DNA of 64,000 nt from Candidatus Omnitrophota bacterium (GCA_021108075.1 JAIORP010000135.1:87938-151937); one strand, 5' to 3'. Numbered from the stretch's first letter, positions 18,927 to 53,252 are shown. Notes: generated from the sequence alone by a model not told the origin. Program-made: numbers and translations.

Positions 18927-20081
18927 ATGAAAAAAATCGCCATGATACCTGTTCGACTGAACAGTCAACGGGTTCCAAATAAAAATTTAAGGCTGCTCAA
19001 TGGCAAACCGATGGTCGCCTATATCATCGAAACGGCATTGGCAACAAATACTTTTGATGAGGTTTACCTGAATTCCGAAGCGGAAATATTTAAGGAAATA
19101 GCCGACCAATATGGCATTAAATTTTACCACCGTCCGGCAGAACTGGCCTCAGACCGGTCAACGAGTGAGGACTTTGTCTATGACTTCATCAAAAATGTTG
19201 AAGGGGATGTGCTCTACCAGCTGCTGGCGACATCACCATTAATCACTCCCATGGAAATCACACATTTTGTGCATGATATGTCCCTGAATGCATTAGACAC
19301 GCTGGTTTCAATCGTGAATCATCGCATCGCGAGCCTCTACAAAAAGCAACCGGTTAATTACGGATTAACAGAAAAATTGAAGAGCTCTCAGACGATGGTC
19401 CCTGTCCAAACATACGCGACGGTTCTTATGGCCTGGCGATATGAAAACTTCAAGGCCAATATGGAAACGCATGGATGCGCTTATTATGGTGGTGACGGTC
19501 GGATTGGATATTATGAATTGAAGGGATTATCCGCCATTGACGTGGACCAGGAAGAAGATTTTATTTTAGCTGAAATCGCGATGCAATATCGAAATGAATC
19601 CCGTCAGGATCAACCGCGGTATTACACATCCAAAAAACAAAAAAACGAACATAGTGAAGTGGATGTTCCGGAAATCCTACGCAAAGACGGCGTCAGCCTT
19701 CGCGATTTTGAACACGAAAATCAACCCTTATTTCACGTGCAGCAGATCATTGATAAGATGGGAACCAACCAATCCTGGTCATACCGGGTGGTTAACACGG
19801 AAAGTAACAGCGCAACCTTAATATCACAAATGCCCGGAGGAGGGAATCGACGGCATTATCATCCAGACTGGAATGAATGGTGGTACATCATCAAAGGTCA
19901 ATGGAAATGGGAAATTGAAGGCAAAAAAATCATTGTCAAAAAAGGTGATATCGTTTTTATCGAAAAGAATAAATGGCACCAAATTACGGCGATGGGAGAA
20001 GAATCTGCTATCCGTCTGGCTGTCAGCCGTGGTGATGTGCCGCACATTTACACAGAGGACATTGAAAACCCATGCCAATAA
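18927..20081 (+). CDS. Acylneuraminate/Kdo-type cytidylyltransferase-family domain (CTP_transf_3) fused to a C-terminal cupin domain
   Basis: N-terminal MKKIAMIPVRLNSQRVPNKNL...GKP (CMP-sugar synthetase family). C-terminal HYHPDWNEWWYIIKG...KWHQI cupin-like motifs. Confidence 0.7.
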   Translation: MKKIAMIPVRLNSQRVPNKNLRLLNGKPMVAYIIETALATNTFDEVYLNSEAEIFKEIADQYGIKFYHRPAELASDRSTSEDFVYDFIKNVEGDVLYQLLATSPLITPMEITHFVHDMSLNALDTLVSIVNHRIASLYKKQPVNYGLTEKLKSSQTMVPVQTYATVLMAWRYENFKANMETHGCAYYGGDGRIGYYELKGLSAIDVDQEEDFILAEIAMQYRNESRQDQPRYYTSKKQKNEHSEVDVPEILRKDGVSLRDFEHENQPLFHVQQIIDKMGTNQSWSYRVVNTESNSATLISQMPGGGNRRHYHPDWNEWWYIIKGQWKWEIEGKKIIVKKGDIVFIEKNKWHQITAMGEESAIRLAVSRGDVPHIYTEDIENPCQ

Positions 20082-20848
20082 AAAATAATCAAGAAATCAC
20101 ACAATTATTTCAACCGTTATTACAAGAAGCCCGAGAACTGATACAGAAAAAACCTCTTAAAATTTATGAATCACAACAAAAAGATATTTCCATAAACTTG
20201 GATCTGATGCTGCATGACCTGATAAAAAATTTCTTATCCCAACACTTTTCCTTTGATGTCCTATCCGAAGAAGATAAGGACCAGTGCGACTTTCTGAAGC
20301 AAACACAACCCGTCTGGATCATTGATCCGCTGGATGGATCTTTCAATGTCAGCCGTCAGATCCCGATGTCTTGCCTATCGTTGGGGTTGTGGTATGATGA
20401 TACGCCCCGGTGGGGGCTTATTTACGATTTCAATCGGGATGAATTGTTTATCGGCTCACTGCCGGAGAATGAAATTTGTGCCCGGTCCGGTGCCTGGTGC
20501 AATCAGCAACCGATACAGCCGGCGCGTACCCCGGTCGCTGAAGGCGTTTTATCCACGGGCTACCCTTCATGGCGGGATTTCTCCGATGACGCCTTAAAAC
20601 GCTCCATTCAGCAGGTTCAATCCTGGAAGAAAATTCGCATGATTGGTTCAGCCGCGCTTTCCCTGGCCTGGGTTGGATGTGGACGGGTCGATGCGTATAT
20701 GGAAGAGGATATCCGGATTTGGGATGTCGCAGCAGGGTTGGCCATCGTGCAGGCGGCCGGGGGCCAGTTTGTCATGCAAAAAAACCAAAAAACAAATTTT
20801 GTCACGGTAAAAGCCGCCAATGGAACGATACCCGTAAATGAAATTTAA
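20072..20848 (+). CDS. Inositol-monophosphatase-family sugar phosphatase (IMPase/CysQ-like)
   Basis: WIIDPLDGSFN and WDVAAGLAIVQAAGG motifs. Confidence 0.75.
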   Translation: MPIKNNQEITQLFQPLLQEARELIQKKPLKIYESQQKDISINLDLMLHDLIKNFLSQHFSFDVLSEEDKDQCDFLKQTQPVWIIDPLDGSFNVSRQIPMSCLSLGLWYDDTPRWGLIYDFNRDELFIGSLPENEICARSGAWCNQQPIQPARTPVAEGVLSTGYPSWRDFSDDALKRSIQQVQSWKKIRMIGSAALSLAWVGCGRVDAYMEEDIRIWDVAAGLAIVQAAGGQFVMQKNQKTNFVTVKAANGTIPVNEI

Positions 20849-20880
20849 TCCCCGGCGATTTTAAAGGAGACAATGAATAT

Positions 20881-21870
20881 ATGATTAAAGTCGGAATCAT
20901 TGGTTTCGGAAAAATGGGAAAAATAAGGGCGCATGCGATAAAAGCGAACGCTCTCGGACAGATTGTGTCAATTTTTGAAGTTGATAAAAATCTCATTTCT
21001 GATGAATATCCTTTTGTTGAAAGCGTAGACGACATATTCAATAATGAGGACATCAATACCCTTTTCATTTGCACACCCAATTATTTAAACAAAGATCTCA
21101 CGATAAGAAGCCTTCAGGCCGGCAAACATGTCTTTTGTGAAAAACCGCCGGCATTTAATGAGCAAGATATGCAGGCCGTCATTGCCGTTGAAAAAAAAAC
21201 GGACACGAAGTTGATGTACGGGTTTAATCATCGGCACCATACCAGCATCAAGCACATTAAACACCTGATTGATTCAGGAGAATACGGGAACATCTTATGG
21301 ATGCGCGGACGTTATGGTAAAAGCACGGACACGTCTTTTTTTGATACCTGGCGGGCCAAAAAAAAACTTGCGGGCGGGGGCATTTTATTAGATCAGGGCA
21401 TTCACATGTTAGATCTTTTCCTGTGTTTTGCCAAGGACTTTCATGAGACACATTCTTTTGTGTCCAATTTATATTGGAAGTTGGAGATCGAAGACAATGT
21501 CTTTGCCATCCTCAGAAACAATAACAATGGCATTGTTGCCTCATTGCATTCAACGATGACACAATGGCGCCATCTTTTTTCTCTGGAAATCTTCCTGGAA
21601 AAAGGATATTTTGTTTTAAATGGACTAAAAACTTCAAGTGGTACTTACGGCGATGAAATATTAACGATAGCTAAGAATCGCTCGACCGCTCCGGCGGCAA
21701 CATGGGAAGATGAAGAAAAAATCGTCTATCAAACCGACCGGTCCTGGCGCTCAGAAATCGATTATTTCTTTGATGCCATCTTAAAAGACACGCCCATTGA
21801 AGTCGGCAATTCTTTAGACGCCCTTAAATTGATGGCGATCACAGATAAGCTATACCAGGAAAGGACCTAA
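20881..21870 (+). CDS. Gfo/Idh/MocA-family NAD(P)-dependent oxidoreductase
   Basis: N-terminal IKVGIIGFGKMGK Rossmann region, EKP motif, typical length. Confidence 0.75.
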   Translation: MIKVGIIGFGKMGKIRAHAIKANALGQIVSIFEVDKNLISDEYPFVESVDDIFNNEDINTLFICTPNYLNKDLTIRSLQAGKHVFCEKPPAFNEQDMQAVIAVEKKTDTKLMYGFNHRHHTSIKHIKHLIDSGEYGNILWMRGRYGKSTDTSFFDTWRAKKKLAGGGILLDQGIHMLDLFLCFAKDFHETHSFVSNLYWKLEIEDNVFAILRNNNNGIVASLHSTMTQWRHLFSLEIFLEKGYFVLNGLKTSSGTYGDEILTIAKNRSTAPAATWEDEEKIVYQTDRSWRSEIDYFFDAILKDTPIEVGNSLDALKLMAITDKLYQERT

Positions 21871-21871
21871 G

Positions 21872-22435
21872 ATGGAGGATAAACAATTCATTGAGACCTA
21901 TTTTCAAACGTTTCAACAATGTATTCAGCCCGGCGGGATCGAAGAAGACATGCTGAAAATGCGGGATATCATGCTTGCGGCTAACCGCGCGAGAAAAAAA
22001 ATTATCTTCGCCGGCAACGGAGCAAGCGCGACAATTGCCAGTCATTGCGCCTTAGATTACACAAAACAAGCGGGTATCCGTTCAACATGTTTTAACGAAG
22101 CCGCATTATTAACGGCTTTTGGAAACGATTTTGGTTATGAAATGTGGCTGCAAAAAGCCCTGGAATTTTATGCCGATAAAGAAGATTTGATCGTCTTAAT
22201 CAGTTCTAGTGGCAAATCGCCGAATATCATCAACGCCGCACAATATGCTAAAGACAAAAAATTTACAATCGTAACATTGACAGGTTTTGATCCCAATAAT
22301 CCTTTAAAAAAAATGGGTGATATCAACTTCTGGGTAGAAAGCAAGTCCTATAATATGATTGAATGCACACATATGTTCTGGCTTGTTCTTGTTTGTGACC
22401 TTATTATCGGCAAATCAGAGTACAAAACATCGTAA
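21872..22435 (+). CDS. SIS-domain sugar-phosphate isomerase (GmhA-like sedoheptulose-7-phosphate isomerase type)
   Basis: 187 aa, single SIS domain, GNGASATIASHCALD and ISSSGKSPNII motifs. Confidence 0.7.
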   Translation: MEDKQFIETYFQTFQQCIQPGGIEEDMLKMRDIMLAANRARKKIIFAGNGASATIASHCALDYTKQAGIRSTCFNEAALLTAFGNDFGYEMWLQKALEFYADKEDLIVLISSSGKSPNIINAAQYAKDKKFTIVTLTGFDPNNPLKKMGDINFWVESKSYNMIECTHMFWLVLVCDLIIGKSEYKTS

Positions 22436-22515
22436 CCCCCGATGAACATCCGGCCTGCGGCAGACACAGAGACCAGAATTGAAACTCGGCCGTCGATGCG
22501 ATTTTTGGATTAATT

Positions 22516-23976
22516 ATGTTAGACCTCCTTATTATAAAACCAGGCGCACAGCGCTTTCTATACCAAAAACTTAGCTCGTCTATTAGCGCGATCGAACCGC
22601 CACTGTGGGGACTATTGCTCGCAAACTTTATCCGTCAAAATGGATTTCAGGTTCAAATCAAAGATGCTGAAATTGACACGATTCAATCGATCCAAGAGAC
22701 GATAACAACCCGTAACCCCAAATTAATCGCCATCGTCGTATCAGGGACCAATCCTTCGGCCTCAACCATGAACATGGTCGGCGCAACGGCCATGATTCGT
22801 CATCTTCGACAATATTTTCCCGGGCTGAAAATCATCCTAATCGGATTACACCCTTCGGCGTTACCAGAACAGACGTTACGGGATGAAAATGTGGATTATG
22901 TCTGCGAGGGAGAAGGGTTTGAGACCACCCTGCTCTGGCTGCAGGGATCAAAATTAGAAGGAATCCCAGGTTTATGGTATAAAGAAGGGCTTCAAATAAA
23001 GCATCAAGAACGGGCGTGCTTAGTTGATCCCAACAGGATGCCCATGCCTGCCTGGGATCTCGTCGACTTAAACCGCTACCGCGCGCATAATTGGCACTGT
23101 TTTGGAAGCCTTGATCAACGCCAGCCATACGCGGTCATATATACGAGCCTCGGTTGTCCGTATCATTGTGACTTCTGCTGTATTCACGCGATATTCGGGC
23201 AGCCCAATATTCGTTACCGGTCCATCAACCTCATCATGGAAGAAGTGGATCTATTGGTCAATGATTATCATGTTAAAAACATAAAAATTCTTGATGAATG
23301 TTTTGTACTTGATCAGCAACATGTGTTAGAATTTTGTGAAGCGATGATCCGCCGCAAGTATTCGGTCAATATGTGGGCTTACGCCCGGATTAACACCATC
23401 AACGAAAAAATTCTTTTAAAAATGAAAGCGGCCGGCTTTCGTTGGATCGGCTATGGGATCGAATCAGGAACACCCGCGGTTTTAAGTGGTGTCCATAAAG
23501 CGCAATACGATAACCAAAAAATTTTTGACGTCGTCAAATTAACAAAAAAATCAGGGCTAAATGTCGGGGGGAATTTTATCTTTGGACTCCCGAATGACAA
23601 TATCGCGGGGATGCGGCGCACATTAGCCTTAGCCGTTCAACTCAATTGTGAATACGCGAACTTTTATACGGCGATGGCTTATCCGGGGTCAAAACTCTAT
23701 GATAAAGTCAGACATAAAGCCGGGCTATTACCCCGGACATGGGAAGGATATTCACAATTTGGAACAGAATGTTTTCCATTGCGCAATGATTTCTTAACAC
23801 AAACGGACATACTGGCTTTCCGCGATCAAGCTTTTATCGACTATTTTTCCCGGGCTGAATACCTTGATATGATTGAGCGAAAATTTGGAAGTCAGACAAT
23901 GCTTCATATCAATAAGATGACACAATACAAATTAAAGAGGACACTGCTAGAAGTCGACCAACAACAGCTGGCTTAA
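22516..23976 (+). CDS. B12-binding domain radical SAM protein (class B radical SAM, methyltransferase-like)
   Basis: N-terminal cobalamin-binding-like Rossmann region. CPYHCDFC (CxxxCxxC) radical SAM cluster motif. Confidence 0.8.
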   Translation: MLDLLIIKPGAQRFLYQKLSSSISAIEPPLWGLLLANFIRQNGFQVQIKDAEIDTIQSIQETITTRNPKLIAIVVSGTNPSASTMNMVGATAMIRHLRQYFPGLKIILIGLHPSALPEQTLRDENVDYVCEGEGFETTLLWLQGSKLEGIPGLWYKEGLQIKHQERACLVDPNRMPMPAWDLVDLNRYRAHNWHCFGSLDQRQPYAVIYTSLGCPYHCDFCCIHAIFGQPNIRYRSINLIMEEVDLLVNDYHVKNIKILDECFVLDQQHVLEFCEAMIRRKYSVNMWAYARINTINEKILLKMKAAGFRWIGYGIESGTPAVLSGVHKAQYDNQKIFDVVKLTKKSGLNVGGNFIFGLPNDNIAGMRRTLALAVQLNCEYANFYTAMAYPGSKLYDKVRHKAGLLPRTWEGYSQFGTECFPLRNDFLTQTDILAFRDQAFIDYFSRAEYLDMIERKFGSQTMLHINKMTQYKLKRTLLEVDQQQLA

Positions 23977-23986
23977 AGGAGAAATT

Positions 23987-24982
23987 ATGATCATCAGTCG
24001 TACACCGTTTAGAATTTCATTTTTTGGTGGAGGAACAGATTACCCCGCATGGTATGAAAAAAACGGAGGAGCGGTCTTATCAACGACTATCGATAAATAT
24101 TGTTATTTAACCTGCCGCTCTCTGCCCCCTTTCTTTGACCATCGCTACCGCATTGTTTATTCAAAGATTGAATTAGTCAAAGACGTCCACAAAATTCAAC
24201 ACCCGGTTGTCCGCGTATGCCTGGAAAACATGGATGTCCCGCAAGGGATTGAACTGCATCACGATGGGGATTTACCTGCCCGGACAGGCTTAGGTTCAAG
24301 CTCTGCTTTTACGGTTGGGCTGCTACACTCCCTCTACGCGCTCAAAGGGATCATGCCGACCAAAAAACGTCTTGCGGATGAAGCCATACATTTTGAAAGG
24401 GAAGTATTGAGTGAAGCTGTCGGCTCACAGGACCAGGTCGCTGTCGCTCATGGCGGGTTTAATAAAATTTCTTTCAGTCAAACCGGGGACTATCAAATAG
24501 ATCCCGTGATCTTAGACCGTGACCGCCTGGATAATTTGCAAAATCATATCATGCTTTACTTCACGGGTTTTTCCAGAATCGCCTCCAAGGTCGCACGGAA
24601 GCAAATTGAAAACACCCCTAAAAAGCAAAAAGAACTGGCCACCATGCAATCTATGGTCGACACGGCCATTGACATCTTATGCAATCGCAGGGACCTCACT
24701 GAATTCGGCCGGTTGCTGCATGAAACATGGATGCTGAAAAGATCGCTGACAGATAAAGTGTCAACAAACGATATCGATCAAATATATGCTGACGCCCGTT
24801 CTTCCGGCGCTATCGGAGGTAAACTCATTGGAGCTGGCGGGGGCGGATTCATGATTCTCTTTGTTCCGCCAAAGCTCCAGAATAAAGTTCGCGTGAAGTT
24901 AAACAATTTGTTGGAAGTAAAATTCAATTTTGAAACTTCTGGCACGCAAATTATTTTTCATAAAGAAGATCCTATCATATAA
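23987..24982 (+). CDS. GHMP-family sugar kinase (D-glycero-D-manno-heptose-7-phosphate kinase HddA-like)
   Basis: GHMP motif LPARTGLGSSSAFTVG. C-terminal GAGGGGF motif. Confidence 0.75.
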   Translation: MIISRTPFRISFFGGGTDYPAWYEKNGGAVLSTTIDKYCYLTCRSLPPFFDHRYRIVYSKIELVKDVHKIQHPVVRVCLENMDVPQGIELHHDGDLPARTGLGSSSAFTVGLLHSLYALKGIMPTKKRLADEAIHFEREVLSEAVGSQDQVAVAHGGFNKISFSQTGDYQIDPVILDRDRLDNLQNHIMLYFTGFSRIASKVARKQIENTPKKQKELATMQSMVDTAIDILCNRRDLTEFGRLLHETWMLKRSLTDKVSTNDIDQIYADARSSGAIGGKLIGAGGGGFMILFVPPKLQNKVRVKLNNLLEVKFNFETSGTQIIFHKEDPII

Positions 24983-43153: not shown

Positions 43154-44206
43154 ATGAAATTGATTGTTACTGGTGGAGCGGGATTAGTGGGATCTCATTG
43201 CGCGGAATACTTTGCCAATAAAGAACATCACGTCACTGTCATCGACAACCTCATGCGCTCACAAATTTTCGGAGCGGGAAATAAAACCGTCGAATACAAT
43301 TGGCAATATCTTAAAAAATATAAAAACATTTCATTGATCAAACAAGATGTGCGTGACTTGCCGGCTATGCTGCGGATCTTTAAACGCATTAAACCCCATG
43401 TTGTCATTCATACCGCAGGGCAACCCGGGGTCAAATTTTCATTGAACAATCCGATTGAAGACTATTCTATTAACGCGACCGGAACCCTGAACACGCTGGA
43501 AGCCCTCAAACAATCCAATAAAAAAGGCACATTCATTTATTGCTCGACAAATAAAGTTTTCGGTGACAATGTGAATAAAGTCACCCTGAAGGAAAAGAAA
43601 AAAAGATATGAATTCCGCAACATCTCCGGCATAAAAGAAAATTTCTCCATTGATTTAACCGGACACACCCCATACGGCGTCTCCAAGTTAACCGGGGATT
43701 TGTACACACAAGATTACGCGAAGACACATGGGCTCAAATGCGGCGTCTTTCGCATGAGCTGCATCTACGGCACCCGTCAGTTTGGTTTTGAAGACCAGGG
43801 ATGGCTCGCCTGGTTTGCCAACCGGTATTTTCTCAAAAAACCGGTCACAATCTTCGGCGATGGGAAACAAACCCGCGATGTCTTATGGGTGGAGGACCTG
43901 GTGAGGGCCTTTGAAGCTTTTATCCAATCCGATTACCAGGGGGAAGTCTTTAATATGGGAGGGGGGCCAAAAAACACATTGTCATTGCTCGAACTAACCG
44001 ACATTCTCGAAACGGTTTCTGACCGCGATATCAAAATCAAGTTCGGCGCATGGCGTAAATTTGATCAAAAGGTTTATATTTCTGACATTACAAAAGCGAA
44101 AAGAATGCTCAAATGGAAACCAACTGTGCGCCCCCAACAAGGCATCGAGCGGTTGTACCGTTGGATCGAAGAGAATGAAAAAATATTTCATTCATTTCTA
44201 AAATAA
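43154..44206 (+). CDS. NAD-dependent sugar epimerase/dehydratase (extended SDR)
   Basis: VTGGAGLVGSH Rossmann motif and YGVSK catalytic YxxxK. Confidence 0.8.
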   Translation: MKLIVTGGAGLVGSHCAEYFANKEHHVTVIDNLMRSQIFGAGNKTVEYNWQYLKKYKNISLIKQDVRDLPAMLRIFKRIKPHVVIHTAGQPGVKFSLNNPIEDYSINATGTLNTLEALKQSNKKGTFIYCSTNKVFGDNVNKVTLKEKKKRYEFRNISGIKENFSIDLTGHTPYGVSKLTGDLYTQDYAKTHGLKCGVFRMSCIYGTRQFGFEDQGWLAWFANRYFLKKPVTIFGDGKQTRDVLWVEDLVRAFEAFIQSDYQGEVFNMGGGPKNTLSLLELTDILETVSDRDIKIKFGAWRKFDQKVYISDITKAKRMLKWKPTVRPQQGIERLYRWIEENEKIFHSFLK

Positions 44207-44223: not shown

Positions 44224-44841
44224 ATGAATATTCTGGCCTTTGGTGCTCATCCGGATGATATTGAACTGGGTTGTGCGGGCACGCTATTGAAGTATGCCAA
44301 ACAGGGCAGCAATGTCTATCTGTGTGTTTTAAGTTCGGGATCTGAAGCGGGCGATGCGGTAACACGCGAGCATGAACAGGAAGAAGCGGCAAAAAAACTC
44401 GGGGTCAAAGAATTAATCTGGGGCCATTGTGAGGACACCAAAATATCGGTGAATAAAAACAATATTTCTTTTATCGAATCTGTCCTCCAGAAAATCAAAC
44501 CCGATGAAGTTTATGTGAATTATTACGATGACACTCATCAGGATCACCGGGCCTTAGCCCAGTGTGTTATTTCCGCGACCCGCTATACGCAAAGAGTGAT
44601 TTATTATGAAGATTACACGTCCAATAATTTCATTCCGGACATCTTTGTGGATATTGGTGAAATCATCGAGGAAAAAATTCGTATTATTGAATCTTTCAAG
44701 TCCCAGATCTCACGGTCATTTCCCTCTGAATTAAACATGATCGAAAGTATCCGGGCCGTTGCCCATTTTCGCGGTTTTCAAGGTCGCACTAAATATGCCG
44801 AGGGGTTCAAGGCCCTCCGTTATTTGAAACATCTGGAATGA
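44224..44841 (+). CDS. PIG-L/LmbE-family N-acetylglucosaminyl deacetylase
   Basis: ILAFGAHPDDIELGCAGTL N-terminal motif. HQDH motif. Confidence 0.8.
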   Translation: MNILAFGAHPDDIELGCAGTLLKYAKQGSNVYLCVLSSGSEAGDAVTREHEQEEAAKKLGVKELIWGHCEDTKISVNKNNISFIESVLQKIKPDEVYVNYYDDTHQDHRALAQCVISATRYTQRVIYYEDYTSNNFIPDIFVDIGEIIEEKIRIIESFKSQISRSFPSELNMIESIRAVAHFRGFQGRTKYAEGFKALRYLKHLE

Positions 44842-46862
44842 ATGTAAGCATGACAATTTCTGAACAGAAAAAACCCCAGGGATATCAACGACAACACACA
44901 TTGGAACGTGTTCTCATCACTCTTTTGTTCTTAACCTTCCTGCTGATTTCTTTTCTGCATGCTCCCGGCATTCACAGCGTATTGACCGAACGCTATAAGT
45001 TGGTCCGTCTCGAAGGCTTTGGCCTCATGGATGTTCTTTTTCTGCTCTTCAATTATACCGGCATCAGTCTGTTCGGTTTTTGCTTGATCAAACCTTTCTA
45101 CGTGAAGCAGGAACGCGAATCATTTTTTATCAAGCTGACAGGGTCATTCTTCATCGGCTACCTTTGCGCCATTGCGCTTATTCGATTGCTATCCTTTATC
45201 GTTCCCTATCCCCACATTTATTTCCCTGTTTGTGTTGCCATGGGGCTCATCTGTCTTTCCCTGCACGGCAACCGGTCAAAAACCCGTCTGAACAGGGAAC
45301 ACGGGGCCCCTAATCATTCTTCTTTACATCGCACCCTTGAGATTCTGCTTTGTCTGTCTGCTTTCATCCTTGTTCTTTTGATCCAGGTCCGCAATGACAT
45401 GGGTGATTTTGCCTGGGTGGGCCATGGCCCGGATCAATACGCGTATCTGTTGCGGGAATGGGGCACTGGCAGTGAAAAACATTTTCCGATCATCCGCCTG
45501 CATTGCGATGAGTTAATTTTTCATTATTTTCTTAACCCGCACCATCACCCGCGCTTTAATCCGATCATCCCGTGGTGGATAACATTAGGGGTTATCAAAA
45601 TATCTTCACTGGCATTTTTTTACTTATTATTCAAACGTCTCAAACTATCGACCTTATTCGCCTGGACATGTTCGCTCTTTGTCCATGCCGGGACGACCGC
45701 CCTTAATCCTTCAAAGTATTACTTGTTATTTGACTCGTCCAATCCTTTATTTTTTACAGCCCATTCCGGACGGATCGTCGGTATTCCTTTATTTATGCTC
45801 CTGTTAATCTTGATTGTTGAAAACATCAAAGGGGCAAAAGAAGGAGAGGCGCACATCCCGTTAATATTCTTTGGACTCACCGGCATCGGGATCAGCGCGA
45901 CATCGTTCTCCAATGCGGCCTGGATACTCGGATTAATCAGCTTCGCGCTCATGTATATCAACTTTTTCCCATCTCAGCTTTGTCACCCCAGGCAAACGCG
46001 GACATTTGATCGTCAAAATAATATCTTCATTTTTTTAACGGTATTGACCTGTCTCACCCTATACTCTCTACCTTATAGCGAAAACCGCTTTTTGAACGAC
46101 CGCACCATCCTGGTGCTGTTTCTGGCCATGCTTTACATATACCGGCTGACAAACCTGTTCTATTTTCCGAATGAATGGCATCAATACTGGATGATCCTTA
46201 AAGATAATAAAATGAACCTGCAACTGCTGACCGCATTGTTCGGGATCATAATCAGTTTCCTCTTATTTTTTAACATAACCGTCGATAATCCTGTTTCGAA
46301 AAAGGTCTACGCGCGACTTTATGCCCGGCAACAACTCTCGCTGAAATCTTTACCCGGGTATAAAGATCAACCGGAGCAATCCATTGACAAAGCGTTCTAC
46401 CTCGGAGACTACCGGAGCCCCAGCCGCAACAATCTCTATGCTTATAACCAGGGGCCCTGGGACTTTATCGCGTACTACGGCGGAATCCTTTCCATGATGC
46501 TTTTCACGAATTTCGCCTTCAAACTTGGCCCTGCCACAAAAGAAAAATCGCAATTTTTCTTCCGGGAAATATTTCTTATGGCCACGATCGGAATCCCTTT
46601 GTGTTTCTTTCTCATGGATTTCGTAAGTTTTGGTCCGCGCGCCTGGATTAAAAGCCGTTTTTTAGAAATACCGGTTTATATTGTACTTTTCTGCTTTTTA
46701 TATAAAATATATACAAGTGTTCCAAAAAAATGGCAGTGGGGGTTTTCTGCTCTATTCATTTTTTATTGTGTAATGCCCTTTTGGATGACCCAAAGGGTGC
46801 ATCGGGTTATTCGTAATTATCGAATAATAAAAAAATTAAATCAAATAAGCAGAGCAAAATAA
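44838..46862 (+). CDS. Large polytopic membrane protein of unknown function (possible GT-C-like glycosyltransferase or polymerase)
   Basis: 674 aa, at least 12 predicted TM helices. No catalytic motif recognised. Confidence 0.4.
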   Translation: MNVSMTISEQKKPQGYQRQHTLERVLITLLFLTFLLISFLHAPGIHSVLTERYKLVRLEGFGLMDVLFLLFNYTGISLFGFCLIKPFYVKQERESFFIKLTGSFFIGYLCAIALIRLLSFIVPYPHIYFPVCVAMGLICLSLHGNRSKTRLNREHGAPNHSSLHRTLEILLCLSAFILVLLIQVRNDMGDFAWVGHGPDQYAYLLREWGTGSEKHFPIIRLHCDELIFHYFLNPHHHPRFNPIIPWWITLGVIKISSLAFFYLLFKRLKLSTLFAWTCSLFVHAGTTALNPSKYYLLFDSSNPLFFTAHSGRIVGIPLFMLLLILIVENIKGAKEGEAHIPLIFFGLTGIGISATSFSNAAWILGLISFALMYINFFPSQLCHPRQTRTFDRQNNIFIFLTVLTCLTLYSLPYSENRFLNDRTILVLFLAMLYIYRLTNLFYFPNEWHQYWMILKDNKMNLQLLTALFGIIISFLLFFNITVDNPVSKKVYARLYARQQLSLKSLPGYKDQPEQSIDKAFYLGDYRSPSRNNLYAYNQGPWDFIAYYGGILSMMLFTNFAFKLGPATKEKSQFFFREIFLMATIGIPLCFFLMDFVSFGPRAWIKSRFLEIPVYIVLFCFLYKIYTSVPKKWQWGFSALFIFYCVMPFWMTQRVHRVIRNYRIIKKLNQISRAK

Positions 46863-47004
46863 TCGATAGGAACAGGTCAAACGCCCTGGATCAAAACCCG
46901 GAAAGGGCGCGGTTATGGCTGCCTGCTTAAAAATTATTAGAAGATTTCTTCCCGCGAAAAAATCCACAATGGAAGAAATAACAATTATTTAGGAAGTTGA
47001 TATT

Positions 47005-48816
47005 ATGAATACTTACAAAGTATGTATCCTGGCGGCCGGAACAGGACGCCGATTAGGACGACTATCGGATAAAATGAATAAAGCCCTGTTACCGATCAAA
47101 TCAAAGGCGATCATCTCACACATCATTGAAAAATTTGACAAAAAGATCGAAATTATCATTGCGGTGGGGCACCAAAAAGAGACCCTGATCCAATACGTCC
47201 GTTGCGCCCATCCTGACCGTAGAATTAAATTCACTCCGGTCAAGCGTTTTAAAGGTGACGGCACCGGGCCGGGTTTTTCTCTCTTGCAATGCCGCCAGCA
47301 ATTAAAGTGCCCCTTTATTTTATTCACGGCTGACACGCTCGTAACAGAAGATATCCCGCCGCCGACCAATAACTGGTACGGTGTCGCGCCCATCAAGAAG
47401 CCTGAGTTGTATTGCACAGCCCGGGTCATTAACCATGTCGTCTGCCATATCGATGACAGGACAAAAACAAGGAACAAATTCGCGTTTATCGGAGTGGCCG
47501 GCGTTCTGGATCATGATTTCTTTTTTGAGAAGTTACAGGAAGATAAGACCCTGATCATGAATGAGATCCCACTATCCAATGGTTTTAAAGCCCTGCTTAC
47601 GAAAAGATTAAAAGCAAAATATTTCACCTGGTATGACACGGGCACGCTTGAAGAATACGCGCAAGCCATTCAAGCCTTAGCTCCTGAGGATCAATACATC
47701 AATGTCACAAACATGGATCAGTTCACGTACAAGGTGGAAGACCGGCATATTTTCCTGCTGACGGACCGCAAGGATTCGCAAAGCATCCTGCACCGCCAGA
47801 GGCTTTTAACAAATTTAATCCCTGAGATGCAGAGTGTGTCAGATAATGTCTTTACCATCCAAAAACAAACGGCTGAACCATTCTATGAAAACCTCAGACC
47901 GCAATTGTTTCTTAAACTTTACCAGTGGTTACAGACGCAGCTTTGGGACCGGTATGAGCTGTCGGATGAATTCCAAAAAACGTTCCAGCAAAAATGTAAA
48001 AATTTGTACCAGCACAGGACAAACAAAATTATCCAGGACTTTCAAAACGAACAGAAACAGAAAGACGGCTTTCACTATATCAACGACGCGCGTGTTCCTC
48101 CCCTCGCGGCCCTTTTAAATAGAGTGAATTGGAAAAAAATATTGAACGGAACGCCCGCCCGCGTGCATGGAAAACTATCCTTAATGAACGTCGACGTGAA
48201 GACCGTTAATCAAAGAAAACACTTTTCACTCAACAACAGTTTTACTGATTTTGACGGTTTAATCGAGTATGGTGATCTGTATTGGGACCTTGCCGCGCTT
48301 TATACGAGCATTCGTTTAAACTTCCTATTATTGCGCAAAGGGGCTTTCAGCCTATACCGGCAGCAAAGAAAGATTGAATTGGACTACCAGATCAATCAAA
48401 AACTGTTAGATATTCAAAAAATTTTCCTGAATTGCGTGGCTGAAGATGGTTACGATGTCCAAAAAATATCCATTTTATCATCGATTTACTGTTTTCATCT
48501 GATACCGGAATATGTCAGCCCCTTGAACGAATTCTTATTTTACTTTGCCAAAAAGGCCTTGTTTGAAAGCCTCGGGAAGAAGCAAAATGAAGAAAATCCC
48601 GAGAAGAGGCCGAATGCAGAAAGTCCCGAAAAAAAACAGAATGAAGAAAGTCCCGAGAAGAGACAGAATGCAAAAAGGCCCGGGAAGAGACAGAATACAA
48701 GAAGGCCCGGAAAAAGGCCGAATACAAGAAGGCCCGGGAAGAGGCCGAATGAAGAAAATCCCGGGAAGAGACAGAATGAAGAAAATCCCGGGAAGAGGCC
48801 GAATGAAGAAACGTAA
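47005..48816 (+). CDS. Fusion protein: sugar-phosphate nucleotidyltransferase domain + kinase-like (APH/ChoK-fold-like) region + C-terminal 9-aa tandem-repeat tail
   Basis: N-terminal CILAAGTGRRLGRLSDKMNKALLPI (NTP_transferase G-x-G-x-R-L signature). Central TDFDGLIEYGDLYWDLAAL resembles the DxE/Brenner region of choline/aminoglycoside kinases. Tail of KRQNEENPG-type repeats. Confidence 0.6.
   Translation: MNTYKVCILAAGTGRRLGRLSDKMNKALLPIKSKAIISHIIEKFDKKIEIIIAVGHQKETLIQYVRCAHPDRRIKFTPVKRFKGDGTGPGFSLLQCRQQLKCPFILFTADTLVTEDIPPPTNNWYGVAPIKKPELYCTARVINHVVCHIDDRTKTRNKFAFIGVAGVLDHDFFFEKLQEDKTLIMNEIPLSNGFKALLTKRLKAKYFTWYDTGTLEEYAQAIQALAPEDQYINVTNMDQFTYKVEDRHIFLLTDRKDSQSILHRQRLLTNLIPEMQSVSDNVFTIQKQTAEPFYENLRPQLFLKLYQWLQTQLWDRYELSDEFQKTFQQKCKNLYQHRTNKIIQDFQNEQKQKDGFHYINDARVPPLAALLNRVNWKKILNGTPARVHGKLSLMNVDVKTVNQRKHFSLNNSFTDFDGLIEYGDLYWDLAALYTSIRLNFLLLRKGAFSLYRQQRKIELDYQINQKLLDIQKIFLNCVAEDGYDVQKISILSSIYCFHLIPEYVSPLNEFLFYFAKKALFESLGKKQNEENPEKRPNAESPEKKQNEESPEKRQNAKRPGKRQNTRRPGKRPNTRRPGKRPNEENPGKRQNEENPGKRPNEET
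48577..48813 (+). repeat. Imperfect 27-bp tandem repeat (about 8.8 copies) encoding 9-aa K/R/Q/N/E/P-rich units at the 3' end of the 47005 gene
   Basis: Units KKQNEENPE, KRPNAESPE, KKQNEESPE, KRQNAKRPG, KRQNTRRPG, KRPNTRRPG, KRPNEENPG, KRQNEENPG. Causes the artefactual overlapping ORFs at 48545-48934 (+) and 48515-48823 (-). Confidence 0.85.
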
Positions 48817-48924
48817 TGGCCAAGATCGGATTATTTATTCCGGCTACACGGTGGAGAAGTCCATCCGCGCTATGCCCCGGGATTTCCGGGCAGATGATGA
48901 CCTCATTGAGAAGGGAGTAGCCGC

Positions 48925-49980
48925 ATGCCCATGATCATCCCGCATTCCAAACCGTCCTTGACGCTCAAAGACCATCGCTGTTTGCATGACATTTTTCAAA
49001 CAAAAATGATCGCGCAACATCAATTTGTGCGGCAATTTGAAAAAAACTTTTCAACATACCATTCTTTGAAAGATGCCGTTGCCCTGAACTCCGGAACAGC
49101 GGCCTTGCACCTGGCCTTATTAGCCCTCGACGTTCAGCAAGGGGATGAGGTGATCATCCCGTCTTATGTCTGCACGGCTTTATTAAACGCGGTGCATTAC
49201 ACGCAGGCGAAACCGGTGATCGTGGATGTGCTAAGGACGGACGGGAACATTTGTCCCGCGGCGGTTAAACAGGCGCTTACAAGTAAAACAAAAGCGGTCA
49301 TCGTGCCGCACATGTTCGGGATCCCGGCGGATATCCGCCCGATCAAAAATATGGGTGTGCCCATTATTGAAGATTGCGCTCAAGCCCTTGGATCCGAATA
49401 CCGTGACAAAAAAATCGGACAGTTCGGCACAATCAGCATTTTTTCTTTTTACGCCACCAAAGTCATCACCACCGGGGAAGGGGGTATGCTGGCGGCTAAT
49501 AATACCAAACTGATCAACCGCGTCCGTGATTTGCGCGATTATGACAATAAACCAACGTACCGCGTCCGGTTTAATTATAAGCTGACCGACCTGCAGGCCA
49601 AACTCGGGCTGAACCAGTTTAGCCGCTTAGACACATTCTTAAAAAAACGCCGCGCGGTCGCGAAAAAATATGACAAGGCCTTTTTGACCCTGCCCGTCGA
49701 GCGGCCGCAGATTGATTCCGCCAAAAAGCATATCGACTATCGCTATATCATCCGCGTAGAAAAGAAAAGTGCGCTTTTAAAATTTTTACAAGGCAAGGGC
49801 ATCCAGGCCTGTTCACCGGTCTTCAGGCCTCTGCACGCGTGCGCGCAATCATCGGCATGTCCGCAGACAACACAGTTGATGCGGACCGAAATATCGCTGC
49901 CGATTTATCCGGACCTCACGGCAAAGGAAACGCGGCACATCATTCAACAAGTGGTTCAATTTTATACAAAGGAACGATGA
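48925..49980 (+). CDS. DegT/DnrJ/EryC1/StrS-family PLP-dependent sugar aminotransferase
   Basis: N-terminal IPHSKPSL. FSFYATKVITTGEGGML lysine motif. Confidence 0.85.
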   Translation: MPMIIPHSKPSLTLKDHRCLHDIFQTKMIAQHQFVRQFEKNFSTYHSLKDAVALNSGTAALHLALLALDVQQGDEVIIPSYVCTALLNAVHYTQAKPVIVDVLRTDGNICPAAVKQALTSKTKAVIVPHMFGIPADIRPIKNMGVPIIEDCAQALGSEYRDKKIGQFGTISIFSFYATKVITTGEGGMLAANNTKLINRVRDLRDYDNKPTYRVRFNYKLTDLQAKLGLNQFSRLDTFLKKRRAVAKKYDKAFLTLPVERPQIDSAKKHIDYRYIIRVEKKSALLKFLQGKGIQACSPVFRPLHACAQSSACPQTTQLMRTEISLPIYPDLTAKETRHIIQQVVQFYTKER

Positions 49981-50909
49981 AAAAACGTTCGATCAAACAG
50001 TTTATCCGCAGCCTGACGCACATATCCAAAGCGCGCGAACACTATGATATCTTCACGCAGGAATACCCGCCCGGACATTTCTTCAGCCCGATCCCGTCCA
50101 GGGAAGAAATCCTGCAAAGGGCCGATCAAATTTTCCAGAACAATGTTAAAAAAATTCCGGGGATCAAACTAAATCTCACAAAACAAAAGCAATTGCTGGG
50201 CCTGCTGAAACGCTACTATCAGGATATGCCCTTCGCGAAATACCAGAGCGACCGGCTGCGGTATTATTTCAATAATAATTTCTTCAGTTACGCCGACGCG
50301 GTGATTTACTATTGCCTCCTGCGCCATTACAAACCAAAAAACATCATTGAGATCGGTTCAGGCTTTTCTTCGGCGGTTACACTGGACACGAACGACCTTT
50401 TTTTCAAAGGAAAGATTGAATGCGCTTTTATTGAGCCCTATTGCGACCGTCTAAGGTCTTTGATGAATGAAAACGACCGAAAAAAATACACCATCCTGAA
50501 ACAACCTGTTCAGGATGTGCCTTTGTCCTTTTTTGAAAAACTGTCCGGGCGCGACGTGCTGTTCATTGACTCCTCACACGTGCTCAAGGCCGGCAGCGAT
50601 GTCAACTATATCCTGTTTGAGGTTCTGCCGCGGTTGAAAAAAGGGGTGCTGATCCATTTTCATGATATCTTTTATCCATTCGAGTACCCGCGCCGATGGA
50701 TTGAAGGGGGCCGCGCCTGGAACGAAGCCTATGCCCTGCGGGCCTTTCTGCAATACAATTCCGCCTATGACATTCTGCTTTTTAATACATACCTTCAGCA
50801 AACCCAAAACGAATGGTTTCACAAACACATGCCGCTCTTCCTGAATAAGACCAACCTGGATTGGAGCCTGATCGAAGAATGCAGCAGCTTGTGGCTGATG
50901 AAAAATTAA
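49977..50909 (+). CDS. Putative SAM-dependent methyltransferase (TylF/CmcI-like fold)
   Basis: NIIEIGSGFSSAV glycine-rich motif and FIDSSH motif. ATG at 49977 overlaps the DegT stop (ATGA); the track start 49839 lies inside DegT. Confidence 0.4.
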   Translation: MKKRSIKQFIRSLTHISKAREHYDIFTQEYPPGHFFSPIPSREEILQRADQIFQNNVKKIPGIKLNLTKQKQLLGLLKRYYQDMPFAKYQSDRLRYYFNNNFFSYADAVIYYCLLRHYKPKNIIEIGSGFSSAVTLDTNDLFFKGKIECAFIEPYCDRLRSLMNENDRKKYTILKQPVQDVPLSFFEKLSGRDVLFIDSSHVLKAGSDVNYILFEVLPRLKKGVLIHFHDIFYPFEYPRRWIEGGRAWNEAYALRAFLQYNSAYDILLFNTYLQQTQNEWFHKHMPLFLNKTNLDWSLIEECSSLWLMKN

Positions 50910-50913
50910 AAAA

Positions 50914-50962
50914 CGTGAGGACGGTTGGTACTTTTTTTAATAAAGTACCAACCGTCCCTACG
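50914..50962. terminator. Palindromic hairpin element (copy 1) immediately after the 50909 stop. Probable bidirectional terminator.
   Basis: GGACGGTTGGTAC-TTTTTTTAATAAA-GTACCAACCGTCC. Same core as the copy at 53303-53358. Confidence 0.5.
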
Positions 50963-51005
50963 TTTCAGGGGGAGAGTATGTCCCGGTTTGTCCATTAGTG
51001 TCATA

Positions 51006-51035
51006 TTGACAAAATACCAATTTAATAGTAATAAT
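51006..51035 (+). promoter_or_regulatory. Candidate sigma70 promoter for the PEP-CTERM protein gene
   Basis: Perfect TTGACA at 51006-51011, 17-nt spacer, TAATAAT -10-like region. About 60 nt upstream of ATG 51093, which has a GGGGA RBS. Confidence 0.4.
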
Positions 51036-51092
51036 GAATGTCAAACCATACTACTCGAAAAATCATTATTACTTTGTCAAAGGGGAAAAACG

Positions 51093-53252
51093 ATGAAAAC
51101 AAAAGTACTGCTTAGCCTTGGTGTCTTTATCTTTATTTTAACGTCCGCCTTACCGGCCTTTGCCGAAACGGTTTATTGGGATGGAGAAGGAACCAGTGAC
51201 CTCTGGAGTGATCATCTAAACTGGAATTCAGACATTAATCCGGTGGACGGTGATGATGTTCTCCTCGACGGCGATTTGTTTGGAAGTTATTTTAGTGTAA
51301 TATACGATGAACCCGCGCTTTCCTTAAATTCATTAACAATAGATTGGGACGCCTGGCTTGATCATTCCCTCTGTTATTCACTTTCAGTCGGCCAGGAGAC
51401 GATCGGGAATTTTAGTTACGGTTTTTTATATCAATCCGGCGGGTCACATAGTGTAACCGGTGATCTATATCAGGGGTACAACTCAGAGGCCTTCGGTGAT
51501 TATTTGCTGACTGACGGCGGCAGTTTGTCGGTTGGAGGAAACCACCTGATCGCCGGGGACGGTGGCGCTTATTTTGAGTTAGACGGTTCCGGTGTTCATA
51601 CCGTCAACAATGACTTAAACCTGGGACAGGGATCTGCCAGTAATGGTCAATATGATTTGATTCAGGGCGATTTAATCGTCTATGGAAATTTAAACAACGG
51701 ACACGAGGGTACGGGCGCATTCAGTCAATCCCTGGGATCGAATACCATCCACGGAGACCTCGCGCTCGGTACCGGCTCCGGTGTAGGTTACTATGATTTA
51801 TACGACGGCTCGCTTTCGGTTACCGGTGGGGAATTCATCGGCAGTGTCGGCAACGGGTGGTTTGAGCAATACAATGGTACCCATGAGAACTTTGGTCACA
51901 CCGTCATCGGCCAATACACAGGCAGTGAAGGATATTATACGCAGGAAGGCGGCGACTATTTCATCGATGGAAATTTCACAATCGCGGCTTATAACGGTAG
52001 CTTCGGCGAATACACCCTGAATGACGGGACCCTCGCCGTTAATCTGTATAATAACAGAAAAGAAGTGTTTATCGGTAATGGCGGAACAGGTTATTTCTAC
52101 CAAAACGGCGGTTTCTTTGATGCCCACGATTCCGGAGTCTATCTCGGTAACCAGTCGACCAGTTCAGGAACCTATATTATGACCGGTGGCCAGTTTGATG
52201 CCAGCGGTATGGCTCTTGGCGAATGGGGCGGGACCGCCTATTTTCTGCAAGACGGCGGAACGGTCAACATGCTAAATGACCATTTAACCCTTGCTCGTCA
52301 GGGTTCCAGCACGGGGACTTATGATATATGGAACGGAGACTTGAACATTCAGAACGGCGATCTTGTTGTTGGTAAACTGGGTTTTGGGACATTCAATCAG
52401 ACCGGCGGCACAGTGAACGTGAGTGGTAACGTTATCATTTCTGCCACACCCAATTCCAGTTGGGGGATCTATAACCTTACATACGGCACATTGAACGCCG
52501 GCACAATCAACAATAACGGTAAATTTTATTATTCCGGCGGACAACTGAACGCCAGTATTTCCAATTCAGCCGGAGCAACGGTTGACGTCAGCGGGGCAGG
52601 AACGACTATCAACGGAGATTTTCATAACCACGGCACGTTTAAAGTGACAAACACAACGACAAACATTACCGGCAGCTTTCATAATTTCAACGCGTTTATT
52701 AGCGATCCCGCGACCACACATGTCCAGGACCTGATTGTTGAAGGCTCCGGATATATCAGCGCGGGCGTGGGTGATGAGATCCACATCACAGGCAACTTCA
52801 AAGATAAAAGCACCCGGAATCAGGACTTTCAAACCCGCAACGCGCAGTTATTTTTTGATGGTAGCGCCCATGAAGTGATGTTTAATAGCCTGGACCTCGG
52901 CCCGCAGGAGACAGCCTATGACAATAATTTTGGATGGGGCCATGTCGACTTTGGGTTAGGCACGTTCACTCTTATTACGCAGGATGATGGCCGACTCGGG
53001 GCTTTATATACAGGGACCATTGGCGGAATAGATGTGTCCGGGGATATCTTAAATAATTTTAGCGGGGATAACAATATTTATTATCTGGCACAGGCTAACT
53101 CATGGTTAAATGGAAAGACATATGATTTTGCTACAGGCCATGGGCAGCTGATCGCTGCCGGCGTCGTGCCGGAACCGATCAGCTCGGTCTTGTTTACGCT
53201 TGGCAGTGCTGTTCTTGCCGCTTCCGGAATTCGAAAAAAACGTAGCCGGTAA
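51093..53252 (+). CDS. Secreted PEP-CTERM-anchored protein with about 22-aa glycine-rich beta-strand repeats (autotransporter-associated/beta-helix-like)
   Basis: Signal peptide MKTKVLLSLGVFIFILTSALPAFA. Repeats of the form GxYxLxxGxLxVxGN. C-terminal VPEP + hydrophobic TM + RKKRSR is the canonical PEP-CTERM sorting signal. The track ORF start 50925 is upstream read-through. Confidence 0.8.
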   Translation: MKTKVLLSLGVFIFILTSALPAFAETVYWDGEGTSDLWSDHLNWNSDINPVDGDDVLLDGDLFGSYFSVIYDEPALSLNSLTIDWDAWLDHSLCYSLSVGQETIGNFSYGFLYQSGGSHSVTGDLYQGYNSEAFGDYLLTDGGSLSVGGNHLIAGDGGAYFELDGSGVHTVNNDLNLGQGSASNGQYDLIQGDLIVYGNLNNGHEGTGAFSQSLGSNTIHGDLALGTGSGVGYYDLYDGSLSVTGGEFIGSVGNGWFEQYNGTHENFGHTVIGQYTGSEGYYTQEGGDYFIDGNFTIAAYNGSFGEYTLNDGTLAVNLYNNRKEVFIGNGGTGYFYQNGGFFDAHDSGVYLGNQSTSSGTYIMTGGQFDASGMALGEWGGTAYFLQDGGTVNMLNDHLTLARQGSSTGTYDIWNGDLNIQNGDLVVGKLGFGTFNQTGGTVNVSGNVIISATPNSSWGIYNLTYGTLNAGTINNNGKFYYSGGQLNASISNSAGATVDVSGAGTTINGDFHNHGTFKVTNTTTNITGSFHNFNAFISDPATTHVQDLIVEGSGYISAGVGDEIHITGNFKDKSTRNQDFQTRNAQLFFDGSAHEVMFNSLDLGPQETAYDNNFGWGHVDFGLGTFTLITQDDGRLGALYTGTIGGIDVSGDILNNFSGDNNIYYLAQANSWLNGKTYDFATGHGQLIAAGVVPEPISSVLFTLGSAVLAASGIRKKRSR

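Follow-up and report, generated by a model that had tools for sequence, protein, structure and literature searches.

HldE is a fusion of a kinase with a nucleotidyltransferase, its kinase having the PfkB fold, and the kinase HddA has the GHMP fold. AmgK, an anomeric kinase of N-acetylmuramic acid (MurNAc) and N-acetylglucosamine (GlcNAc), belongs to the aminoglycoside phosphotransferase (APH) family, and MurU is a MurNAc-1-phosphate uridylyltransferase. Kent et al. reportedly described a LicCA fusion in Treponema denticola in 2004. Here we analyse a gene of comparable build, in which a nucleotidyltransferase half, a kinase-fold half and a repetitive tail are joined, from a Candidatus Omnitrophota bacterium (GCA_021108075.1 JAIORP010000135.1:87938-151937; this whole stretch of 64,000 nucleotides is called the window below). 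The gene is a divergent member of an existing, uncharacterised family of fusion proteins of about 530 amino acids, not a new kind of system, and our literature searches found no paper characterising this transferase–kinase fusion family or its gene cassette. We favour, at a probability of roughly 0.6, the view that it is a partly decayed positional orthologue of the bifunctional family, with a working transferase, a pseudokinase and an expanded tail.

Architecture and Family Membership

The open reading frame (ORF) lies exactly where the initial annotation of this DNA placed it (47005..48816, + strand, 603 amino acids) and falls into three parts, a nucleotidyltransferase half, a kinase-fold half and a disordered tail of nine 27-bp units.

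47005..48816, + strand: complete coding sequence, 603 amino acids plus TAA stop (48814..48816); from the ORF list and full-length homology
47005..47685, + strand: nucleotidyltransferase half, residues 1–227, RmlA/LicC/GalU-like Rossmann fold, apparently intact; from Pfam, PDB and Foldseek
47686..48579, + strand: kinase-like half, residues 228–525, choline-kinase/APH (eukaryotic-like kinase) fold, catalytically degenerate; from AlphaFold2 and Foldseek
48571..48813, + strand: nine in-frame 27-bp units; from Tandem Repeats Finder and the codon register

The 603 codons are free of stops and frameshifts, and the gene is co-oriented within a dense gene cluster, starting 143 bp after its upstream neighbour. 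Homology to the fusion family covers residues 1–525, or 87% of the query (E about 1e-137, ~40% identity), and the full-length AlphaFold2 model, built from 117 family sequences, has a mean predicted local distance difference test score (pLDDT) of 85.6. Among 5.8 billion proteins we found 353 relatives, almost all of 520–550 amino acids and ~36–41% identical, from DPANN archaea, Candidate Phyla Radiation bacteria, Omnitrophota, SAR86, Pelagibacteraceae and others. They go under generic names in their sources (“NTP transferase domain-containing protein”, “NDP-sugar pyrophosphorylase family protein”, “choline kinase”). None carries the repeat tail, since the relatives cover just the first ~87% of the query. 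At the DNA level, an Rfam scan of 46800..49100 gave no match, and promoter and terminator scans were uninformative, the apparent minus-strand terminators being CCCGGG palindromes of the repeat units.

Catalytic Residues and Divergence of the Kinase-Like Half

The two halves of the protein have fared very differently relative to the family. In an alignment of 117 sequences (the window protein and 116 relatives), the relatives show at least 90% conservation in 186 columns, 95 of the N-terminal half and 91 of the kinase half. Of these columns, the window protein departs from the relatives at 50/91 in the kinase half vs. 17/95 in the N-terminal half, where the differences are mostly conservative. 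The altered kinase positions include all three that phosphotransfer requires.

47752..47754, + strand: F250 at the position of the ATP-binding β3 Lys, family RVIKYF, here RHIFLL; from the alignment
48166..48189, + strand: HGKLSLMN, residues 388–395, Brenner motif with the catalytic Asp replaced by Lys and the Asn kept; from the alignment
48229..48243, + strand: L409-N-N-S-F413 in place of the family's LLDWR, with N411 at the Mg-binding Asp (DFG-equivalent) site; from the alignment and spacing
48247..48291, + strand: D415-FDGLIEYGDLYWDL-429, conserved helix-start segment after the metal site, family QDFGGLxxxGDLYYDL; from the alignment

PMC7368946 outlines what the Brenner Asp and Asn and the metal-binding Asp do in choline kinase. 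At the first position (K250F), which lies within a predicted β strand at 247–252, all 116 relatives have Lys. At the second (D390K, family HGDLQFDN to HGKLSLMN), all 116 have Asp, and the window protein keeps the Brenner His, Gly and Asn. At the third (D411N), 99% of relatives have Asp, and the two following residues are also changed (W412S and R413F). In a wider set of 148 representative clusters, the key columns read K/D/N/D in 135, D/N/D in nine N-truncated fragments that end short of the β3 column (Lys in 137/139 clusters covering it), and carry His instead of Asn in two; the catalytic residues are missing from only two others, P0131 and P0231, described below.

These assignments differ in their anchoring. 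A profile alignment with hhalign placed the family's HGDLQFDN on THGDACLPN of NPTII (D190 and N195), at a probability of 6% over 34 columns. Assignment of the Mg-binding Asp rests on hairpin spacing and motif analogy, because this alignment covered the Brenner motif alone. The LNNSF segment directly follows the β-hairpin after the Brenner Asn, and by analogy the spacing from the hairpin to LLDW would equal that to D208 of NPTII. The segment DFDGLIEYGDLYWD (residues 415–428) begins four residues downstream of the metal-binding Asp position; its F416, G423, D424 and Y426 are invariant in the family and retained here. We take the stretch at 415–429 to be comparable to ADRYQDIA of NPTII. DFDG...GDLYWD is a structural or substrate-side motif and not a metal ligand.

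Both HGKLSLMN and the segment at 415–428 had been reported in the initial annotation and are present as described, although its view of the DFDG segment as the divalent-cation/Brenner region does not hold: the Brenner motif is HGK....N itself, and the family's metal Asp lies upstream in LLDWR. Its suspicion of an inactive kinase, raised by the change from HGD to HGK, gains from D411N and K250F, all three falling at 99–100% conserved positions, and from the absence of any APH model match. With the ATP-binding Lys, the catalytic Asp and the Mg-binding Asp all gone, the kinase half is, as judged from its residues, most likely a pseudokinase.

We modelled residues 228–530 as a separate domain with AlphaFold2 (pLDDT 88.9), as the full-length Foldseek run had matched the N-terminal domain only. 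The top PDB matches are ethanolamine kinase (2qg7), choline kinases, APH(3')-Ia, glucosamine kinase (6hwl) and maltokinase, with APH(2'') and macrolide phosphotransferases also represented. E-values run from 3.5e-5 to ~1e-3, template modelling (TM) scores from 0.4 to 0.49 and identities from 9 to 17%; nearly all of the top 50 are choline kinase (ChoK), ethanolamine kinase (EthK), APH, glucosamine kinase, maltokinase or macrolide phosphotransferase structures, with one protein kinase, Bud32. Because the model matches a coherent set of kinase structures, a kinase-like fold is supported, and the middle domain, which had been likened to choline or aminoglycoside kinases from its sequence, does not model as a non-kinase module. 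Sequence profiles give a different picture for the window copy. PF01636 (APH) matches the C-terminal domain of 21/21 sampled relatives vs. no match to the window kinase half even at E <= 1, nor does any other Pfam or NCBIfam model match it; among the relatives, too, no kinase half finds a meaningful family in NCBIfam, and a profile search of the PDB with the window kinase half reached only chance-level matches (RIPK2, E ~1.3).

Divergence is concentrated in the same half. Identity between the window protein and its relatives is 53% over the N-terminal half and 28% over the kinase half (ratio 0.53), compared with 69% and 58% for pairs of relatives (mean ratio 0.84, minimum 0.64). Relative pairs whose N-terminal halves have diverged as far as the window's still share 45% identity in the kinase half (minimum 38.6%). 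By these identities, the divergence of the kinase half is roughly double what would be expected. When 1.84 billion cluster representatives were searched exhaustively with HMMER, no sequence came nearer than ~34% identity to the window kinase half, so the degenerate state is known in just one lineage.

The two family members without catalytic residues are of another kind. P0131 (locus L091) and P0231 (locus L092) read K/N/N/G and I/N/N/N at the key columns, and both have also lost the transferase G-x-G-x-R loop, unlike the window protein, whose N-terminal half is intact. Neither has a GatZ-like gene immediately downstream, and no partner gene is seen on the short contig stretch at hand. From their sequences they look like fully dead copies that arose by independent losses.

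Family Cassette and Its Absence from the Window

To place the gene in context, we called and clustered ORFs in 84 related loci, many of them on truncated contigs. Four genes recur beside the fusion: a ~166-aa HAD-type phosphatase immediately upstream (58/84 loci), a ~338-aa GatZ/KbaZ-like protein immediately downstream (64/84), a ~143-aa cupin after the GatZ/KbaZ-like gene (65/84) and a ~272-aa shikimate-dehydrogenase-like (SDH-like) protein (38/84). At least one of the four is present in 83/84 loci. In three relatives of ~900 amino acids (P0069, P0090 and P0112) the fusion is further joined to a GatZ/KbaZ-like domain, and GtrA-like and GT2 genes often follow the cassette. The five-gene cassette is seen in L005, L013, L026, L035/L086, L037, L085 and L087 (e.g., L086:4734-9005), and it ranges over DPANN archaea, Candidate Phyla Radiation bacteria, Omnitrophota, SAR86 and Pelagibacteraceae.

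For the family as a whole, a kinase-plus-nucleotidyltransferase logic is plausible. The set of cassette enzymes suggests a route like that of HldE or HddA–HddC, in which a sugar phosphate would be made or isomerised, phosphorylated at the anomeric position, relieved of its distal phosphate and nucleotidylated, and from its gene content the cassette probably makes some nucleoside diphosphate (NDP)-sugar for surface glycans. This cassette, uncharacterised and widespread, is a more promising lead than the window gene itself.

A tblastn search of the 64-kb window found none of the HAD, GatZ/KbaZ-like, cupin or SDH-like partners. One syntenic partner is kept.

44838..46862, + strand: 674-aa multi-pass membrane protein of no known family, the sole syntenic partner kept

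Homologues of this protein (29–34% identity, >620 amino acids) lie upstream of an intact fusion in L002, L005, L008 and L037 and are confined to these four Omnitrophota loci among the 84. It has no Pfam or NCBIfam match, and its relatives are named just “hypothetical”. Because this synteny is retained, we regard the window gene as most likely a positional orthologue whose cassette has decayed.

Nucleotidyltransferase Half

The N-terminal half retains all signature and invariant residues of its family. The NTP_transferase domain assigned to it in the initial annotation is well founded: residues 7–113 of the 603-aa protein match PF12804 (NTP_transf_3; 32.9 bits vs. a gathering cut-off of 27) and PF00483 (NTP_transferase; 29.5 bits vs. 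21.2), and both sequence and fold searches of the PDB agree.

47029..47058, + strand: signature loop L9-A-A-G-T-G-R-R-L-G18 (G-x-G-T/S-R-L/M NTP-binding loop); aligned with 3hl3 and 1jyk

The best PDB sequence match is RmlA (3hl3, glucose-1-phosphate thymidylyltransferase), followed by LicC (1jyk, phosphocholine cytidylyltransferase); the HddC structures 5xhw and 6jq8 match weakly. The loop LAAGTGRRLG aligns with ILAGGTGSRL of RmlA and ILAAGLGTRL of LicC and is kept relative to the family consensus LAAGVGSRMG, and the lysine motif NKALLP (NKxLLP) is present and covered by both alignments. RmlA, GalU and MurU lead the Foldseek matches (E 3e-13 to 1e-11, target TM 0.6–0.79). No NCBIfam equivalog (RmlA, GalU, HddC, MurU, GlmU and others) reaches its cut-off, the best scoring 43 bits vs. 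292 and the MurU models 26 bits vs. 250. By profile and fold this half is a nucleotidyltransferase of RmlA/GalU/MurU/LicC type, and the retained residues predict activity. A family hidden Markov model of the N-terminal half found no second nucleotidyltransferase of RmlA/HddC type in the 64-kb window.

Repeat Tail and Strain Variation

Tandem Repeats Finder detects a single array in the region (48565..48811, period 27, 9.1 copies, 81% matches). The about nine imperfect 27-bp repeats of the initial annotation are thus confirmed, and they lie inside the coding sequence, in frame, with no stop before 48814. In order the units read LGKKQNEEN, PEKRPNAES, PEKKQNEES, PEKRQNAKR, PGKRQNTRR, PGKRPNTRR, PGKRPNEEN, PGKRQNEEN and PGKRPNEET. 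Net charge is +3, +4 and +4 in the three middle units, and zero or –1 in those outside them. Residues 534–603 have pLDDT <50, in keeping with the disorder expected of this tail. The unit occurs nowhere else in the 64-kb window (0 expected by chance), and a tail-only protein search found nothing similar, though low-complexity filtering may have masked matches.

Relatives stop near query residue 525–535 or bear short, unrelated, variable charged extensions, so the tail is lineage-specific. Unit 1 overlaps the native C-terminal residues (..ALFESLGKK) and is continuous with the conserved C-terminal helix; for this reason the gene's own 3' end is the apparent origin of the array. Differences between units fall mainly at codon positions 2 and 3, with 133 nonsynonymous vs. 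38 synonymous pairwise codon differences. Because changes are mostly amino-acid-changing, the tail looks weakly constrained; it probably is, and may be neutral.

The DNA encoding the 603-aa protein is identical in two further assemblies (Logan SRR15668621 and ENA ERZ26872899), and ERZ26872904, with a single-base difference in 3.7 kb, encodes the same protein; the three assemblies are independent, from different samples and assemblers. In a fourth contig (L001, from ERZ26872896, 4x coverage) the array holds precisely one further 27-bp unit (10 vs. 9), giving a protein of 612 amino acids; this would fit the suggestion that the in-frame tail varies in length, here between near-identical assemblies. 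The two forms differ by 22 substitutions and the one-unit indel over 6142 aligned bp. Four of the 22 substitutions lie within the 247-bp array, where 0.9 are expected (binomial p = 0.011); the tail has three nonsynonymous changes and one synonymous, and the 1560-bp core three synonymous and one nonsynonymous. Exact-pattern scans of Joint Genome Institute metagenome contigs for the 3' flank and the repeat junction gave no match. Since a unit is nine codons, a change in copy number alters tail length alone, without on/off switching. The frame or promoter switching of a phase-variable simple-sequence repeat locus is accordingly not seen: a one-unit change keeps the frame and yields 603 or 612 amino acids.

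The array is also open in the + frame 48545..48934 (129 amino acids, into the start of the next gene) and on the – strand (48515..48823, 102 amino acids), and a +1 or –1 slip within it would yield a different, longer tail. We rejected a functional second ORF at 48545..48934, which is open just from the A/G-rich composition of the units, as well as a CRISPR-like or other noncoding array, the units being tandem, without spacers and in frame.

The variant contig also differs in the upstream 674-aa gene. At L001:2752-2754 (window 45981..45983) it carries the nonsense change TGT->TGA (C382*), and 5/9 differences from the window in this gene are nonsynonymous, the nonsense change included. Either gene decay in the variant strain or errors of a 4x-coverage contig would account for C382*.

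Genomic Context

Two further neighbours of the fusion gene belong to NDP-sugar families.

43154..44206, + strand: SDR-family NDP-sugar dehydratase/epimerase; Pfam GDP_Man_Dehyd and Epimerase, E 1e-47
48925..49980, + strand: DegT/DnrJ/EryC1 NDP-sugar aminotransferase, immediately downstream of the fusion gene; Pfam PF01041, E 1e-86

The best NCBIfam match of the first is dTDP-glucose 4,6-dehydratase, under its curated cut-off, and this enzyme is a possible downstream user of an NDP-sugar. The second matches PseC, LegC and ArnB-type models, all under cut-off. The remainder of the window is one large polysaccharide cluster, with a Wza/Wzc/Wzy-type export and polymerisation set, a Wzm/Wzt ABC transporter, many GT2 and GT4 genes as well as GT9 and GT11, WbqC, several methyltransferases and a PIG-L deacetylase. 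It also holds a GmhA-like isomerase and an HddA-like GHMP kinase, 22–25 kb from the fusion gene, and a PseF-like cytidylyltransferase. All three belong to a group at 18927..24979 that comprises a PseF-like cytidylyltransferase–cupin fusion, an inositol-monophosphatase-family protein, a GFO/IDH oxidoreductase, the GmhA-like SIS isomerase, a B12-binding radical-SAM enzyme and the HddA-like kinase, with no HddC-type nucleotidyltransferase nearby. The N-terminal half of the fusion protein, as the sole such transferase in the window, could serve this route.

Three other features lie farther from the subject. The Methyltransf_24-like ORF at 49839..50909 begins with GTG and overlaps the end of the DegT gene by ~140 bp, its true start probably lying downstream. 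It is followed at 50925..53252 by a 775-aa secreted Gly/Asn/Ser-rich repeat protein with a PEP-CTERM-like end (VPEP...hydrophobic stretch...RKKRSR) and no Pfam match. A second in-frame coding tandem repeat of the window is found at 132..720, where 2.7 copies of a 216-bp unit (99%) encode 72-aa repeats within ORF 27..1979, a long Lys/Gln/Glu-rich, coiled-coil-like protein.

Competing Explanations

Under the partial-decay reading, the cassette would have been lost from this genome apart from the upstream 674-aa membrane protein, and the kinase half, now dispensable, would have decayed while being kept as a folded appendage. The N-terminal half would still turn a sugar-1-phosphate, supplied by a different route, into an NDP-sugar for the polysaccharide genes around it. 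Slippage or unequal recombination may have expanded the gene's own last nine codons into a tail that would tolerate both unit gain or loss and amino-acid changes.

Several observations weigh against this reading. Some domains that look like pseudokinases retain or gain catalysis through relocated residues, and D415 and a new D417 are found close to the lost metal site. Intact relatives supply the alignment that drives the AlphaFold2 model of the kinase half, so the model is not independent proof of folding, and since a frame of ~300 codons stays intact at 28% identity, continued selection on this half can be argued. In the transferase half, conserved positions on the sugar side are altered (P85D, G186N and Q189P). 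The window covers 64 kb of a 163-kb contig, and cassette partners or an intact paralogue could sit elsewhere in the genome. Finally, the 10-unit allele comes from one 4x short-read contig, and an array of ~245 bp exceeds typical short reads, so that an assembly effect is possible.

The alternative that survives best, though still unlikely, is that the pseudokinase half and the tail have acquired a new, selected role, as a ligand-sensing or allosteric module, as a docking scaffold for the membrane protein, or as a basic tether to an anionic membrane or polymer. Maintenance of both the frame and the hydrophobic-core pattern despite 28% identity would fit such a role, as would the strongly basic middle units, the conserved synteny with the 674-aa protein and the short, variable, charged C-terminal extensions that relatives also bear. 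However, no close relative shares these features, the tail sequence shifts freely between units and between strains, and the tail-only search found no similar tail in other proteins.

Somewhat less probable is that the whole gene is a nonfunctional relic of the cassette that has not yet acquired stops and whose repeat growth is unselected. The loss of cassette partners and kinase residues and the free evolution of the tail are what such a relic would show, the neighbouring gene carries C382* in the variant strain, and P0131 and P0231 combine degeneracy of both halves with missing partners. Yet the window's N-terminal half keeps its signature and invariant residues and scores above the Pfam cut-offs, unlike those two copies. 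The uninterrupted 603 codons, the 3 synonymous vs. 1 nonsynonymous changes in the core between strains, and the position of the gene, co-oriented 143 bp after its neighbour in a dense cluster, likewise argue against a relic.

A more elaborate proposal, which we regard as distinctly doubtful, is that the pseudokinase binds a nucleotide or sugar phosphate and gates the transferase allosterically or docks on the 674-aa protein, while the variable Lys/Arg-rich tail sets adhesion to the anionic membrane or nascent polymer. If true, this would be a bacterial glycan-precursor enzyme regulated by a pseudokinase, with population-level tuning by repeat number.

An active bifunctional enzyme of LicC+LicA type, in which an atypical kinase phosphorylates a small alcohol or sugar that the N-terminal domain then nucleotide-activates, is very unlikely. 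Its architecture, both folds and the intact ORF would suit such an enzyme, the Brenner His, Gly and Asn and the GDLYWDL segment are kept, and LicC is the second-best PDB sequence match of the N-terminal half. Against it, all three phosphotransfer residues are replaced, by Phe, Lys and Asn, the kinase half fails to match the APH model that matches 21/21 relatives, and its divergence is accelerated. Moreover, the ChoK D-x-E motif is missing from the family itself, and there is no LicB- or LicD-type Pfam match among the scanned window ORFs. The LicC+LicA logic put forward in the initial annotation therefore stands in part: a kinase-plus-transferase enzyme is plausible for the family, but the lack of a ChoK D-x-E motif and the sugar-phosphate neighbours speak against choline or ethanolamine as its substrate. 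For this copy, K250F, D390K and D411N, together with the missing PF01636 match, turn that proposal down, and it is unlikely, on the residues present, to phosphorylate anything.

That the repeat is an assembly artefact or noncoding DNA misjoined to the coding sequence is highly improbable: although the array can be read through in two + frames and one – frame, exceeds the usual length of short reads and has its 10-unit form from a 4x contig, the same array recurs in three independent assemblies from different samples and assemblers, its imperfect units (81% matches) aid assembly, the indel is exactly one unit, and unit 1 is continuous with the conserved C-terminal helix with no stop before 48814.

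Partial decay of a bifunctional fusion would have consequences for annotation. Pipelines would call this protein an “NTP transferase domain-containing protein”, or transfer to it a family label such as “choline kinase” or bifunctional enzyme; the transferase half alone is trustworthy. The gene would also offer a clean natural case of half of a fused enzyme dying upon loss of its pathway partners, and suggests that in-frame minisatellite growth at the 3' end of a gene can append ~80 disordered residues to an enzyme.

Comparison with Known Systems

The ~530-aa fusion family is the closest relative of the window gene, alike in collinear full-length homology, in both folds, in domain order and, among its Omnitrophota members, in the upstream membrane protein. 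The window copy differs in lacking the K, D and D residues and the four neighbours, in being an outlier in the kinase half and in its 78-aa repeat tail.

Among described systems, LicC and LicA share with it the order of a nucleotidyltransferase followed by a ChoK-fold kinase, and the LicC structure 1jyk is among the top sequence matches of the N-terminal half. However, the likeness of the kinases is at the level of fold only (TM 0.4–0.5, 9–17% identity), and the window kinase is predicted to be dead. The LicA choline kinase motif (h-h-D-h-E ... D-h-x-N-H-x-x-E) is not found in the family, whose consensus is LLDWRQDFGG...GDLYYDLAKLY, with LLDWR replacing I-D-x-E, and the conserved neighbours of the family are sugar-phosphate enzymes, not LicB or LicD.

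The family cassette resembles HldE, and HddA plus HddC with GmhA and GmhB, in an apparent logic of isomerase, anomeric kinase, HAD phosphatase and nucleotidyltransferase. It differs from these NDP-heptose pathways by the APH/ChoK fold of its kinase, by a cupin in place of a SIS isomerase and by an added GatZ/KbaZ-like enzyme. AmgK plus MurU likewise combine an APH-fold sugar kinase with an RmlA-like transferase, and the MurU structures 4y7t, 4y7u and 4y7v reach target TM scores of 0.74–0.79 to the N-terminal half, although the window gene lacks a peptidoglycan-recycling context. Finally, the window protein resembles bacterial pseudokinases in that the kinase fold is kept and the canonical Lys, Asp and Asp are lost, with the difference that its derived state comes from a single lineage.

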